NCBI GenBank assembly: GCA_030428395.1
Contig: JAUIDW010000003.1
Location: 32,552 to 64,551 of the forward strand
Direction: 5' to 3'
Length of the DNA stretch: 32,000 nt
DNA from: a bacterium
Lineage (GTDB): Bacteria > Planctomycetota > UBA1135 > GCA-002686595
Shown here: piece after piece, positions 1,168 through 17,379 of the stretch
How positions within the stretch are numbered: the stretch's first letter is position 1
Layout of the letters: each line of letters opens with the position of its first letter
Program-made: the position numbers and the translations under genes
Notes under the pieces: model-generated
What the model was told of the DNA's origin: nothing
Database searches by the model: none
The model's input: only the letters and a program-made list of their open reading frames with translations

Positions 1168-2043
1168 GTGAGAAGACAAGCCGTCCTCCGAGTGCTCGTG
1201 CTGCCCGCCTTCCTCGCAGGGGCTTCCGGTCCGCTGCGCGCGCAGGACGCGCCGTCCGAGGAGACGATCGCCTTCTTCCGGCAGAACTGCATGAGCTGCC
1301 ACACCATCGGGGGCGGGCGGCTGACCGGGCCGGACCTGAAGGGGGCGCACGAGCGGGCGGACGAGGCCTGGCTGGTCGACTTCGTCCTGGATCCCAAGGG
1401 CGTGATCGACAGCGGCGACCCCTATGCCGCGGAGATCTTCCGCGACGCGCGCGGCGTCTACATGACGCAGGTGCCCGGTATCGACCGCGCGAGGGCGGAG
1501 AAGCTCGTTCGCCTGATCGTGAGCGAGTCCGCCAAGGAGAAGTCGGAGTTCGCCGGGCTCCAGGTCAGCGACCGCCCCCTGACCGATGCCGACGTCGCCC
1601 GGGGGCGCCAGCTGTTCCTCGGGGCCGCGACCTACCAGAACGGCGCGCCCGCCTGCGTCTCGTGCCACACGCTGAGCGGCCTGGGCGGGCTCGGCGGCGG
1701 AACGCTGGGACCGGACCTGACCGACGTCTACGACCGCCTCGAGGGACGCAAGGCCCTGGCGGCGTGGCTCGGGTCGCCTCCCTCGATGGTGATGCAGCCC
1801 GTGTTCGAGGGGCACGCCCTCGACGGCGAGGAGATCCTCGCCCTGGTGGGCTACCTCAAGTCCGTCGCGGAGGGCCAGGAGGAGGCGCAGCCGGCCAGCA
1901 CCCTGCGCTTCGTGCTGCTGGGGTTCGCCGGAGCCGCCTTCCTGCTCCTGCTCTTCGACTTCCTCTGGCGCAAGCGATACCGCGCGACGCGCCGGCCGCT
2001 GCTCAGGACGAGCCGCCACGCCGCGGCGGGGTCGCACTCATGA
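1168..2043 (+). CDS. narC: Membrane-anchored dihaem c-type cytochrome, NarC-like
   Basis: GTG 1168 is preceded by GGAG (1155-1158). The N-terminus is signal-like ([26 protein letters not shown]). There are two CxxCH motifs (CMSCH, CVSCH). A C-terminal hydrophobic helix ([22 protein letters not shown]) is followed by a basic tail. The stop overlaps the narG start (ATGA at 2040-2043). The ORF-track start at 1060 is possible but would put ~36 non-signal residues in front. Confidence 0.8.
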
Positions 2044-5000
2044 AGAACGGTCGCATGCCGAACGGGGACAACCCCTACATCCAGGACACCGTCGATCCCC
2101 GCACGCGCTCCTGGGAGGAGTTCTACCGCAACCGCTGGCAGCACGACAACGTCGTGCGCAGCACCCACGGCGTGAACTGCACGGGCGGGTGCTCGTGGAA
2201 CATCCACACCAAGGACGGGATCGTCACGTGGGAGATGCAGGCGCTCGACTACCCGACGATCGATCCGGAGATCCCGCCCTACGAGCCGCGCGGGTGCCAG
2301 CGCGGCATCTCGTACTCGTGGTACCTCTACAGCCCTCTGCGGGTGAAGTACCCGTACATCCGCGGGGCGCTGCTCGACCTCTGGAGAGAGGTGCGGTCCG
2401 CCCACGAGGACCCGGTGGACGCCTGGACCGCACTGATGAGCGACCCCGCCAAGCGGGCGCGGTACCAGCGCGCGCGGGGCAAGGGGGGGCTGAGACGGAC
2501 CACGTGGGAGACCGTCCAGGAGATCATCGCGGCGTCCGCCGTGCACACCATCCGCAAGCACGGCCCCGACCGCATCGTCGGCTTCTCGCCGATCCCGGCC
2601 ATGTCGATGCTGTCGTACGCGGCGGGCGGGCGAATGCTGCAGCTGATGGGCGGCGTGAACCTGTCGTTCTACGACTGGTACTGCGACCTGCCGAACGCCT
2701 CGCCGGAGACGTGGGGCGAGCAGACCGACGTGAACGAGTCCGCGGACTGGTTCCACGCCAAGTTCCTGGCGGTCATGGGGGCCAACCTGAACATGACCCG
2801 CACGCCGGACGTGCACTTTGCCTGCGAGGCGCGCACGAACGGCTCGAAGATGGTCGTCTTCGCACCCGACTTCAACCAGGTGGCGAAGTACGCCGACGAA
2901 TGGATCCCGATCAACGCCGGCCAGGACGGCGCGTGGTGGATGGCGGTCAACCACGTCATCCTCAAGGAGTTCCACCACGAGCAGCAGAACCAGGCGTTTC
3001 TCGACTACACGCGCACGTACACCGACGCGCCGTTCCTCGTCGAGATCCAGGAGGGCCCCCAGGGGCACCGCGCGGGCCAGCTCCTGCGCGCCGGGCGCCT
3101 CGGCGCCTACGCCGGCGAGGAGAACGGCGAGTGGAAGTTCCTCCAGTGGGACCGCAGGGACGGGCGCCCCAGGATGCCCATGGGCAGCTCGGGCCACCGC
3201 TGGCAGCAGAAGAAGGGCCAGTGGAACCTGCAGGCCAGGGACGGGGCGGACGGCAGCGAGATCGACGCGGTCCTGACGTTCCTCGAGGACCACGACGAGG
3301 TCGTCCAGGTCGCGCTGGACGACTTCGGGGCGGCGCGCTCGGTCCGGCGCGGGGTCCCCGTGAAGCGCGTGACGCTGGCGGACGGCGAGCAGGTCCTGGT
3401 GGCCACCGCCTACGACCTCCTGATGGCCCAGTACGGCGTGCCGCGTGGCCTGGCGGGGGACTACCCCGAGAGCTACGACGAGGACTCGGTGTACACGCCC
3501 GCGTGGGCGGAGCGGTACACGGGGATGGACCGCGCCACGCTGATCCGCTTCGCGCGCGAGTGGGCCACGACGGCGGACCACACCGGCGGCAAGTGCACGG
3601 TGATCATCGGCGCCGGGATCAACCACTGGTACCACGCGAACCTGATGTACCGGGCGGCGATCCACGCGCTGATGTTCTGCGGCTGCGTGGGGGTGAACGG
3701 CGGCGGCCTCGCGCACTACGTCGGGCAGGAGAAGCTCGCGCCGATGGAGCCCTGGTCGAACATCGCGTTCGCCAAGGACTGGTACCCGCCCTCGCGCCTG
3801 CAGAACGCCCCCAGCTGGCACTACGTGCACTCGGACCAGTGGCGCTACGAGAAGAGCCATCGCGACTACAACAGCGTCCCGGAGGACCAGCCCGAGGACA
3901 GCATCGCGAACGGGCACACGATCGACGTCAACGTGCGCGCCGTGAAGAACGGTTGGCTGCCGTTCTATCCACAGTTCGACCGCAGCCCGGTCGACGTCGT
4001 GCGCGAGGCCCGCGCCGGGGGGGCGACCGACGAGGCGGGAGTCGTCGAGCACGTGGTCTCGTCGCTGAAGAAGGGCGACCTGAAGTTCGCCATCGAGGAC
4101 CCGGACGCCGAGAGCGCCTGGCCCCGACTGTGGTTCATCTGGCGTGGCAACGCCTTGATGTCCTCGGCCAAGGGGCACGAGTACTTCCTGAACCACTACC
4201 TCGGCACGCACCACAACAACGTGTCCAGGGACATGGCCGAGGACTGCGTGCGCAGCGTCGTCTGGAGGGACGACGCGCCGACCGGGAAGATCGACCTGGT
4301 CGTCGACCTCAACTTCCGGATGGACACGTCGGCGCTCTACTCCGACATCATCCTGCCCGCCGCGACGTGGTACGAGAAGGACGACCTCAACTCGACGGAC
4401 ATGCACAGCTTCGTGCACCCGCTGTCCCAGGCCGTCCCGCCGTGCTGGGAGTCGAAGAGCGACTGGGACATCTTCCGCACCATCGCGAAGGAGTTCTCGA
4501 AGCTGGCGGCGAAGCACCTGCCGGGGCTGACGCCCGACGTCATCGCAGCGCCCCTGGCCCACGACACGCCGGCCGAGATCGCGCAGAGGGACATGCGCGA
4601 CTGGAGCCGCGGTGAGGTCGAGGCGATCCCGGGCAAGACGATGCCGGCCTTCAAGGTCGTCGAGCGCGACTACGCCAACCTCTACAACCAGTTCGTGTCC
4701 TTCGGGCCGATGGCCCGCAAGAACGGCCTCGGGGCGCACGGGACCAGCTACGCCATCGACGACTTCTACGACGAGCTGGTCGCCAAGAGTCCCGTGCAGC
4801 GGTGGGGAGGTCAGGCCTACCCGTCCCTGCGCGAGGCGCGCCACGCCGCCGACGTCGTGCTGAAGCTCGCGACGGTCACGAACGGCGAGCTGGCGTACCG
4901 CTCCTACCAGAACATGCAGGAGAAGGTCGGGCTCACGCTGACCGACCTGGCCGAGGCGGATCGGAACGTGCGCATGTCGTTCAAGGACCTGCAGGCGCAG

Positions 5001-16231: not shown

Positions 16232-17379
16232 ATGCCCCGCACGCCCCGGCCTACGAGCCCTCGCCGCGGCTCCTCCGGGGGTTGCTCCTGACGGCGGTCG
16301 CCGGCGGGATCGTGTTCCTGTGTGGAACGCTGATCGCCCCGGAGCGCGTGTGGAGCGGCTACCTCATGGGGTTCACGTACTTCGTCGGGCTCGCCCTGGC
16401 GGGCCCGCTGTTCCTGTCCGTGCTGTACCTGTGCAACGCGCGGTGGGGGCTGCCCCTGCTCCGCGTCCCCGAGGCGATGACCGCGGTGCTCCCGATCGCC
16501 TTCGTGCTGGGGCTCGTCCTGATCACGGGGACGCACGCGCTCTACGAGTGGTCGCACGAGCAGGTGGTCGCCCAGGACCCGCTGCTGAGGCACAAGGCGC
16601 CCTGGCTGAACGTCTTCGGGTTCTCGCTGCGCCTGGTCGCGTACTTCGCGATCTGGATCTGGCTCGGCCGCCGGCTGGCGCGGCGCTCGACGGTCCTCCA
16701 GGCGCCGGCGGAGAAGCGGCGCGGGGACATCGGGAGCTCCGCGCTGTTCATGGCCGCGCTCGCCTTCACGTTCTCGCTGGCCAGCGTCGACTGGATCCAG
16801 TCCCTGGATCCGCACTGGTTCAGCACCATGTTCGCCCTGCGGACGCTCTCCGGTGCGGGATGCGCTGGGCTGGCGCTGTGCACGATCCTGCTCGTCGCTC
16901 TGCGGCGCGCGGGGCCGCTGCGCGGCGTCGTGACGCGCGACGTGATGGACGACCTCGGCAAGATCCTCCTCGCGCTCTCCCTGCTCTGGGCGTACGTCTG
17001 GTACTGCGAGTACATGATCATCTGGTACTCGGACATCCCCGAGGAGACCGGCTACTACTTGCTGCGGCACCGCGGCGTGTGGGGCAGCCTGGTGCCCGTC
17101 AACCTGGCGGTGAACTTCGCCGTGCCCTTCCTGGCGCTCATGCTGCGCGCCTGGCGGCGCAACGGCGTCGCCCTGACGCGCATCGCGGCCCTGATCCTGG
17201 TCGGGCACGCGCTCGACCTGTACGTGATGATCGCGCCGCCGATCCTGGGCGCGGAGCCCTTCCTGGGCCTGTGGGAGATCGGGCCGGTCGCGGGAGCGCT
17301 CGCGCTGTTCACCTGGGCCCTGCTGCGCGCGCTGTCGCGGAGCCCGCTGGTCCCCGCGCAGGCGACTCCGTCCGCCTGA
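16228..17379 (+). CDS. actF: Alternative complex III subunit F (second NrfD-like membrane subunit)
   Basis: The ATG overlaps the actE stop (ATGA 16228-16231). 383 aa. It is polytopic and a distant paralogue of actC. It is the last gene before the convergent minus-strand gene. Confidence 0.8.
   Translation: MNAPHAPAYEPSPRLLRGLLLTAVAGGIVFLCGTLIAPERVWSGYLMGFTYFVGLALAGPLFLSVLYLCNARWGLPLLRVPEAMTAVLPIAFVLGLVLITGTHALYEWSHEQVVAQDPLLRHKAPWLNVFGFSLRLVAYFAIWIWLGRRLARRSTVLQAPAEKRRGDIGSSALFMAALAFTFSLASVDWIQSLDPHWFSTMFALRTLSGAGCAGLALCTILLVALRRAGPLRGVVTRDVMDDLGKILLALSLLWAYVWYCEYMIIWYSDIPEETGYYLLRHRGVWGSLVPVNLAVNFAVPFLALMLRAWRRNGVALTRIAALILVGHALDLYVMIAPPILGAEPFLGLWEIGPVAGALALFTWALLRALSRSPLVPAQATPSA

Follow-up and report, generated by a model that had tools for sequence, protein, structure and literature searches.

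Alternative complex III encoded behind a respiratory nitrate reductase represents a nar-linked type distinct from the cox-linked one

The stretch of DNA analysed here comprises 32,000 nucleotides of a planctomycete contig (JAUIDW010000003.1, positions 32,552 to 64,551 of the forward strand; assembly GCA_030428395.1) and is referred to below as the window. Twelve plus-strand genes, narC-G-H-J-I-K-actA-B-C-D-E-F, fill its positions 1168-17379 and encode a membrane-bound nitrate reductase (Nar) followed directly by the six subunits of alternative complex III (ACIII), with junctions of -44 to +24 nt (Table 1). Comparison with loci from other genomes revealed that nar-linked and cox-linked ACIII operons are two distinct types, and that a cysteine motif for an iron-sulfur cluster (FS0) in subunit ActB is specific to the nar-linked type.

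The last six genes could be assigned with the help of solved structures. Concatenated and searched against PDB sequences with phmmer, the Act proteins matched chains A-F of 6BTM, 6F0K, 6LOD and 8K9E nearly end to end. ActB displays an SRRGFLQ twin-arginine motif as well as Fer4 domains at residues 757-872, and in an alignment of ActC with 6F0K_C all of the quinol-site residues described for Rhodothermus marinus (P136, H139, D169 and D253; PMC5928083) are identical. Taken together, the six subunits, their haem counts, the twin-arginine translocation (Tat) motif and the quinol site mean that this is a true ACIII and not an unknown NrfD-type complex, and a quinol:cytochrome c or quinol:high-potential iron-sulfur protein (HiPIP) oxidoreductase is its plausible predicted activity. 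The nar and act gene names proposed in the initial annotation of the window agree with Pfam, NCBIfam and the PDB sequence search alike.

That annotation had also proposed a survey of nar-act synteny. With an ActD alignment as query, one genome of each GTDB species was scanned, the nearest 80 among the matches listed were taken as loci (numbers with L), and the window proteins were located by tblastn, loci with actA and at least 3 kb of upstream DNA being informative (n = 55) and narI being accepted at 45% identity or more. On the same strand upstream of actA, narI was found in 52 of the 55 informative loci, usually together with narJ, narH and the end of narG; one further locus, an ActD neighbour, is cut inside narK. 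Carriers fall into at least eight phyla among the 80 matches listed, under the labels Planctomycetota, Acidobacteriota (several classes), Myxococcota, Bacteroidota including Ignavibacteria, Methylomirabilis, Bacteriovoracaceae, Caldithrix, Zhuqueibacter and others. The arrangement is not peculiar to this genome but typical of an entire ACIII subgroup. Zero, one or two NarK-like genes of the major facilitator superfamily (MFS) stand between narI and actA, and the narK equivalents from 33 loci form a single MFS cluster. The last nar gene ends no more than 40 nt from actA in about 48 of 58 loci, with frequent overlaps of 1, 4 or 8 nt. Wherever the start of the nar cluster was visible, narC preceded narG (8/8 loci, five found via NarC homologues and three via an acidobacterial-type ActA); the closest relatives were reached by exact-protein look-ups.

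Three loci of Acidobacteriota (L040, at 3254-5338; L050; L073) encode, just before an FS0-type actA-F, a cytochrome c resembling NarC and a cytochrome b resembling NarI, which stand in for a narI above the identity threshold; neither narG nor narH was matched in these loci. A protein of about 950 aa with a Big_5 domain is encoded downstream in these three. On the other side of the block, no conserved gene follows actF (341 open reading frames, ORFs, fell into 275 clusters); recurrent neighbours there are NarK-like transporters, hemerythrin, NosD/F, a SLAC1/TehA channel, MoaA and MoeA.

Linkage to oxidase genes showed the opposite distribution. The window contains no cox gene, and the 54 nar-type loci gave no SCO or cox match. 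Plasmids of cultured bacteria (Paludisphaera, Paraburkholderia, Nitrobacter and Mesorhizobium) carry actABCDEF, a small gene, SCO and coxBACD, and a search of plasmids for the nar-type operon in a cultured bacterium returned cox-type ACIII only. As a control, we used a metagenome scan seeded with the plasmid cox-type ActD (80 loci), in which nar genes were present in 0/13 upstream-informative loci and SCO/cox genes in 16/16 downstream-informative ones. The contrast drawn in the initial annotation between the usual oxidase linkage of ACIII and the nar linkage seen here is borne out by these figures. Fisher tests of the nar/cox dichotomy yielded p values of about 1e-11 to 1e-16, which are descriptive, as they ignore relatedness. 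The cox-type operons L087-L090 show one small extra gene (130-171 aa) between actF and SCO that is absent from the nar-type block and is possibly ActG-like. In a neighbour-joining tree of ActC, plasmid cox-type and Chloroflexi sequences split from all others in 100/100 bootstraps.

While the recognition of ACIII in the initial annotation stands, its most distinguishing feature here had been missed, namely a motif retained in domain B1 of ActB. C69-x2-C72-x3-C76-x27-C104 corresponds to the N-terminal [4Fe-4S] (FS0) motif of MopB enzymes and is absent from all four solved ActB. Domain B1 of solved ACIII has no prosthetic group, and the iron-sulfur branch of the canonical complex ends there (PMC5928083); nar-type ActB departs from this state in that the FS0 motif is present and conserved. 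Among the 54 nar-type loci it is canonical in 49, has a swapped ligand in three and is lost in two (L003 and L023), and it also occurs in the three cytochrome c/b-linked loci named above. No cox-type ActB has it, neither from plasmids (0/4) nor from metagenomes (0/19). The three exceptions with four cysteines (L002, L025 and L053) replace the first by serine and gain a new one two residues after the fourth, which looks like a ligand swap that would keep four ligands. The family PF04879 matches B1 in 36/38 nar-type versus 0/10 cox-type sequences, and the best non-ACIII structure for a nar-type B1 profile is ArrA, which aligns in three stretches with all four FS0 cysteines coinciding. An extra iron-sulfur cluster in nar-type ActB is likely, and a molybdenum cofactor unlikely.

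In complex iron-sulfur molybdoenzymes, FS0 is the cluster next to the molybdenum cofactor. A six-gene cluster that is itself catalytic on a periplasmic substrate, be it as an NrfAH-like nitrite reductase, as raised in PMC10732223, or as an ArrA/Psr-like molybdoenzyme working through B1, would agree with an FS0 motif that is kept and, according to the three ligand swaps, under selection, with ArrA as the closest structure outside ACIII, and with the canonical iron-sulfur branch that ends in a B1 without prosthetic groups (PMC5928083). We nevertheless hold such a catalytic role to be very improbable. All haem motifs of ActA are CXXCH, with no CXXCK catalytic haem as in NrfA; the molybdenum-ligand cysteine of ArrA aligns with serine in nar-type B1; remnants of the catalytic domain PF00384 are as weak in nar-type (14/38) as in cox-type (4/10) sequences; the conservation of B1 relative to B2 does not exceed that in the cox type (ratios of 0.66 and 0.70); and no maturation chaperone beyond NarJ is encoded. 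An active molybdoenzyme as the leading reading of B1 was rejected because of the same serine, the PF00384 remnants and the conservation ratio.

Turning to the nitrate reductase, NarG is 62% identical to NarG of Thermus thermophilus and about 48% identical to proteobacterial NarG/NarZ; its N-terminus is without a twin arginine and carries H-x3-C-x3-C. NarI keeps the equivalents of the four haem histidines of Escherichia coli NarI (H56, H66, H187 and H205), with Lys86 of the quinone site replaced by arginine. NarC shares 32-34% identity and the same architecture with the Thermus cytochrome c encoded directly upstream of narG; the protein collection lists NarC in its 291-aa form (P0121, source ncbi). 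Judged by these features, the enzyme is a cytoplasm-facing, Thermus-type NarCGHI with the chaperone NarJ.

The twelve genes are packed very tightly. ATGA overlaps of 4 nt occur at positions 2040, 7779, 15141, 15656 and 16228, spacers of 1 nt separate narH from narJ and narK from actA (nt 10107), and nt 10758 is common to the actA stop and the actB start (TGATG); the widest gaps are those of narG/narH (24 nt) and narI/narK (12 nt). Every junction listed in the initial annotation was reproduced in this way, and so was its observation that the nar/act junction leaves no room for a terminator plus promoter, the region forming one translationally coupled block with no motif for an internal promoter or terminator. 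Its total of thirteen genes has to be amended, since 1168-17379 holds the twelve of its own list; the thirteenth same-strand gene is the MFS-DoxX fusion ending at 1031. The overlap of actB and actC amounts to 44 nt from ATG 13693 or 11 nt from ATG 13726, the latter being the more likely actC start because of a GAGGAG Shine-Dalgarno sequence there and the same arrangement in the relative L083. For most genes of the operon, a GGAG-type Shine-Dalgarno sequence lies within the preceding gene. From this spacing we infer that the nar and act genes are co-transcribed.

The possibility of a chimeric assembly had been raised for the nar/act junction, which proved genuine. A Logan contig from a separate assembly (ERR3428548_162265, 3697 bp) is 100% identical to positions 9470-13166 and spans narK/actA, a second contig covers the end of actC up to 23 kb, and the identical gene order recurs in more than 60 independent assemblies, one of them a contig of 6.57 Mb. 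With that identical contig across the junction and assemblies from many studies, accidental adjacency or an assembly artefact was rejected as a negligible prospect, nothing speaking in its favour.

Upstream of narC, we found a putative control region. The sequence GGCACG-N4-TTGA at 1117-1130 is its sole exact plus-strand match in the window, and the same sigma54-like element lies 30-75 nt before narC in 5/5 related NarC loci, reading TTGC in L171. Equivalents of the palindrome at 1047-1064 precede narC in L084, L085 and L171, and L172 and L173 have variant forms of it; in these five loci the elements lie around 9830-9970. Genes for a HAMP-HisKA kinase and a sigma54 activator (response regulator) directly precede narC in 4/5 of the related loci; they are known from these relatives, as the window begins too late to include that region. 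The palindrome is a probable candidate binding site of a sigma54 enhancer-binding protein, and transcription of the operon apparently starts at a sigma54-type promoter a short way before narC. No sigma54-like element was found elsewhere on the plus strand of the operon, the narK/actA junction included. A consensus scan of positions 1-19500 returned no promoter-like site and no plus-strand terminator-like site, which is weak evidence for a planctomycete of high G+C content; as such a scan is uninformative for this organism, conservation across loci was used for the promoter instead.

Some regulatory neighbours differ between loci. In L176 (325-1446), an Rrf2-family regulator and a hemerythrin take the place of the sigma54 two-component pair upstream of narC, which means that the structural block is conserved and its regulatory wiring varies. 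The window also has an Rrf2 gene, at 28677-29087, 11 kb downstream of the operon. A dihaem cytochrome c (243-250 aa) and a COX1-family protein (457-479 aa) adjoin the two-component genes in L084 (1868-3990, minus strand) and L172 (4016-6183, plus strand); this COX1-family protein beside the nar-act regulators is NOR-like or cbb3-like.

The synteny itself has been seen before. A study of metagenome-assembled genomes (MAGs) from tunnel biofilms (PMC10732223, 2023) reported 13 instances, in Planctomycetota/KSB1, in which this six-gene cluster follows Nar genes; the cluster matched no described complex, and either a nitrite reductase like NrfAH or a respiratory function not further specified was proposed for it. 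Two of our loci, L022 (OFTM341) and L028 (OFTM285), bear the MAG prefix of that study and carry the cluster. The initial annotation had known of no description of ACIII within a nar operon. The arrangement is common (52/55) and was noticed once, as an unrecognised 'novel NrfD-like six-gene cluster'; what stands is that the earlier report did not equate this cluster with ACIII. No other description of Nar together with ACIII was found in the open-access literature. Papers on Caldithrix, Ignavibacterium, MBNT15, Gemmatimonadota, Limisphaera, Lacipirellula, Zixibacteria RBG-1 and Margulisbacteria describe ACIII as cox-linked or unlinked, and ACIII reviews and genome papers refer to oxidase linkage. 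In the literature ACIII is regarded as a replacement for the bc1 complex in aerobic and photosynthetic chains. Within the open-access literature, the ACIII identity, the breadth and the mutual exclusion with cox together with an FS0-bearing ActB appear to be new, and the synteny is not. The published annotation of the cluster as an unknown complex or nitrite reductase is corrected by this assignment.

As to function, we think it moderately probable that the ACIII is a menaquinol:cytochrome c oxidoreductase dedicated to nitrate respiration and made together with Nar from one operon. An inducing signal would lead to both complexes being made in fixed proportion. Nar would reduce nitrate in the cytoplasm, while ACIII would take electrons from menaquinol at the conserved quinol site of ActC, which faces the periplasm, and relay them via the iron-sulfur clusters of ActB and the haems of ActA and ActE to c-type cytochromes that serve nitrate respiration. 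The membrane-anchored dihaem protein NarC from the same transcript would be the foremost candidate for their direct acceptor, and from NarC electrons could reach periplasmic N-oxide reductases. That ACIII may in general supply denitrification enzymes has already been suggested (PMC9270275). For this locus, we infer the direction of electron flow, the acceptor and the regulator from sequence. The variants offered in the initial annotation, ACIII feeding Nir/Nor/Nos or NarC, or a Nar-ACIII assembly, are plausible and inseparable at this level.

Several observations weigh against a dedicated ACIII. In NarI the haem ligands and a basic quinone-site residue are conserved, so Nar needs no ACIII for its own electrons, and since NarCGHI of Thermus operates without ACIII, NarC does not depend on one. 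No nirS, nirK or nrfA gene is present in the window; nirK and nirS were likewise not found in the MAGs of PMC10732223, so that some carriers may lack the downstream acceptors presumed here. The scheme assigns no function to the retained FS0 site, and the -12 element of the window is TTGA, the canonical one being TTGC. For co-transcription of nar and act, gene spacing is the entire argument. In the ActC tree, the main nar-type group reached a bootstrap of 50/100, with the cox-linked sequences of Flavobacterium johnsoniae and R. marinus near its base, and for this reason the nar-type ACIII is called here a group and not a proven clade.

An alternative is a physical Nar-ACIII supercomplex, in which electrons would run from menaquinol through ACIII, ActE/ActA and NarC to the NarI haems and NarGH, and any proton translocation by ACIII would add to the charge separation across NarI, as a nitrate analogue of the ACIII-caa3/aa3 supercomplex. 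A gene order that persists across phyla is known to predict physical interaction. Both operon types would then encode ACIII with its terminal reductase (cox in 16/16, nar in 52/55 loci), the Nar beside ACIII always has NarC (8/8), actA follows narI by just 1-12 nt in many loci without an intervening narK, and L040, L050 and L073 pair NarC-like and NarI-like cytochromes with a nar-type ACIII in loci with no narGH match. The lack of nirK and nirS in the MAGs of PMC10732223 would also be in line with a supercomplex. We regard it as rather unlikely all the same, given that NarI appears competent to oxidise quinol, that Thermus uses NarC without ACIII, and that a block transferred horizontally as a unit could explain the conservation without contact between the complexes. 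Moreover, by the potentials of E. coli NarI, transfer from a c-type haem to the low-potential distal haem b would be uphill, and in Thermus NarC is said, in work of the Berenguer group, to carry electrons out of Nar towards Nir.

Two further alternatives reverse the flow through ACIII. Operating like the quinone-reducing complex Qrc, it could pass electrons from low-potential periplasmic cytochromes (fed by H2, formate, Fe(II) or sulfur compounds) to menaquinone, which NarI would reoxidise. The best NCBIfam matches of ActA, ActB and ActC are QrcA, QrcC, QrcB and DsrO/DsrP, none of which reaches its cut-off. The homologous Qrc works from cytochrome to quinone (PMC8076601, PMC6303296), and reverse flow through ACIII has been proposed for iron oxidisers (PMC4643136). 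However, the Qrc models were missed by wide margins, all six subunits, including ActD, ActE and ActF, which lie outside QrcABCD, match true ACIII far better, and no hydrogenase, formate dehydrogenase or Cyc2-like gene recurs beside the block, all of which makes this direction improbable. The second alternative, Nar as a nitrite oxidoreductase of the Nitrobacter type with ACIII driving electrons from cytochrome c to quinone, draws on the NarG clade with such planctomycete sequences, which holds the cytoplasm-facing NxrA of Nitrobacter, Nitrococcus and Nitrolancea (PMC10732223). It is hardly credible, though, as NarG is 62% identical to a demonstrated nitrate reductase from Thermus, oxidase genes occur in 0/54 loci, the carriers are mostly heterotrophic lineages (Acidobacteriota, Myxococcota, Bacteroidota), and the recurrent neighbours include molybdenum cofactor biosynthesis, hemerythrin, NosD/F (few loci) and an Rrf2 regulator (one locus).

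Beyond the dedicated ACIII, which we continue to favour, a wider interpretation can be offered tentatively and with considerable doubt: the nar-type ACIII may be the nitrate counterpart of the ACIII-oxidase supercomplex, with the FS0-bearing ActB as the ancestral, anaerobic state and the oxidase-linked form without this cofactor as the derived one. If so, docking on NarCGHI would raise the proton yield of nitrate respiration above that of the classical NarGHI redox loop. An ancestral anaerobic ActB would further contradict the statement that ActB 'participates exclusively in aerobic respiration' in the evolutionary study PMC10100899, where the family is dated on the assumption that it is exclusively aerobic. 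The FS0 site is a candidate explanation for the unexplained 'dead-end' iron-sulfur branch of solved ACIII, and the nar-act operon a concrete candidate for a more efficient nitrate-respiratory chain. For the interpretation of MAGs, ACIII genes would be evidence for nitrate respiration and not for aerobiosis where they are of the nar type.

A few other features of the window may be mentioned. The partial MFS-DoxX protein at its start is 78% identical to residues 263-593 of a 602-aa MFS+DoxX protein of L084, and such fusions recur beside nar-act blocks, upstream of narC or downstream of actF (L084, 8063-9868; L003, 12360-14156). Long antisense ORFs of up to 1768 aa lie opposite narG, narK and actB (minus strand, 1851-7157, 7659-10181 and 10752-14156); with a G+C content of about 70% in the window, they are the usual artefact and not genes. 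Further downstream, a same-strand cluster (19208-28140 and 29308-30849) encodes a zinc-dependent alcohol dehydrogenase, two enoyl-CoA hydratases, GNAT, BcrAD/BadFG-type ATPase domains and an SDR protein, followed by GNAT, Rrf2 and a B12-binding radical SAM protein. The gene content looks like that of an acyl-CoA or aromatic-type pathway with no relation to the operon.

Table 1. Positions and main characteristics of features in the 32,000-nt window
Feature	Position	Strand	Remarks
MFS (NarK-like)-DoxX fusion, 3' part, 342 aa	3..1031	+	cut by window start; DoxX Pfam match
Palindrome TGCATA-N6-TATGCG	1047..1064	.	single match in window
Sigma54-like -24/-12 element GGCACG-N4-TTGA	1117..1130	+	38 nt before narC GTG start
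narC, membrane-anchored dihaem cytochrome c	1168..2043	+	signal peptide; CXXCH at residues 41 and 163; C-terminal transmembrane helix; Pfam Cytochrom_C x2
narG, catalytic subunit of cytoplasm-facing respiratory nitrate reductase	2040..5693	+	TIGR01580, 1492 bits (cut-off 1084)
narH, iron-sulfur subunit	5718..7205	+	Pfam Fer4_11 and Nitr_red_bet_C (PF14711)
narJ, Nar assembly chaperone	7207..7782	+	PF02613; TIGR00684 below cut-off
narI, dihaem b membrane anchor	7779..8468	+	PF02665, 200 bits
narK, nitrate/nitrite MFS transporter	8481..10106	+	TIGR00886, 267 bits, below cut-off 311
actA, pentahaem cytochrome c, N-terminal transmembrane helix	10108..10758	+	five CXXCH; 6BTM_A, 3e-50
actB, Tat signal, MopB-like B1 and four-cluster ferredoxin B2	10758..13736	+	6F0K_B, 8e-167, full length
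Codons for FS0 [4Fe-4S] motif C69-x2-C72-x3-C76-x27-C104 in ActB domain B1	10962..11069	+	aligns with FS0 cysteines of ArrA
actC, NrfD-like quinol-binding membrane subunit	13726..15144	+	6BTM_C, 2e-177; alternative start 13693
actD	15141..15659	+	PF11821, 2.8e-51; PDB chain match 3e-25
actE, monohaem cytochrome c, lipobox-like LLPC	15656..16231	+	one CXXCH; 6F0K_E, 6e-20
actF, second NrfD-like membrane subunit	16228..17379	+	6F0K_F, 2e-44; no Pfam match
GC-rich intergenic region	17380..17504	.	strong hairpins (fold prediction); between operon end and convergent gene
NMO-like convergent gene	17505..18938	-	faces operon end

Among known systems, the nar half of the operon resembles narCGHJIK on the megaplasmid of Thermus thermophilus, which has the same order narC-G-H-J-I-MFS and a NarC of the same design, with signal, two haems and C-terminal anchor. 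In contrast, no act genes follow the transporter in Thermus. The genes upstream there code for a ferredoxin, a succinate dehydrogenase-type Fe-S protein and an NAD(P)/FAD oxidoreductase, which we take to be the nitrate-specific NADH dehydrogenase Nrc. Regulation differs as well, Thermus employing GAF-domain and Crp/Fnr proteins and the window a sigma54-type element.

For the act half, QrcABCD of sulfate reducers is a homologous module of multihaem cytochrome c, molybdenum-less MopB-like, iron-sulfur and NrfD-like subunits. It runs from cytochrome c3 to quinone, does not include ActD, ActE or ActF among its subunits, and its models scored 56, 231 and 105 bits here, against cut-offs of 180, 400 and 440. 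Of ArrAB and PsrABC, ArrA shares the four FS0 cysteines with B1, and ArrB and PsrB resemble B2; unlike these enzymes, ACIII has added haem subunits and a second NrfD-like subunit, and B1 gives a weak catalytic-domain signal. Also close is the cox-type ACIII (R. marinus 6F0K, F. johnsoniae 6BTM; photosynthetic 6LOD and 8K9E), with the same six subunits in the same order, ActC being 54-61% identical to the solved chains, and with a pentahaem ActA, a monohaem ActE, a Tat-exported two-domain ActB and the quinol-site residues in common. The nar type lies behind narCGHJIK, whereas the cox type lies in front of SCO-coxBACD; the nar type has no ActG- or ActH-like gene after actF, where the cox type has its small extra gene; and nar-type ActB keeps the four FS0 cysteines that all solved ActB are without.

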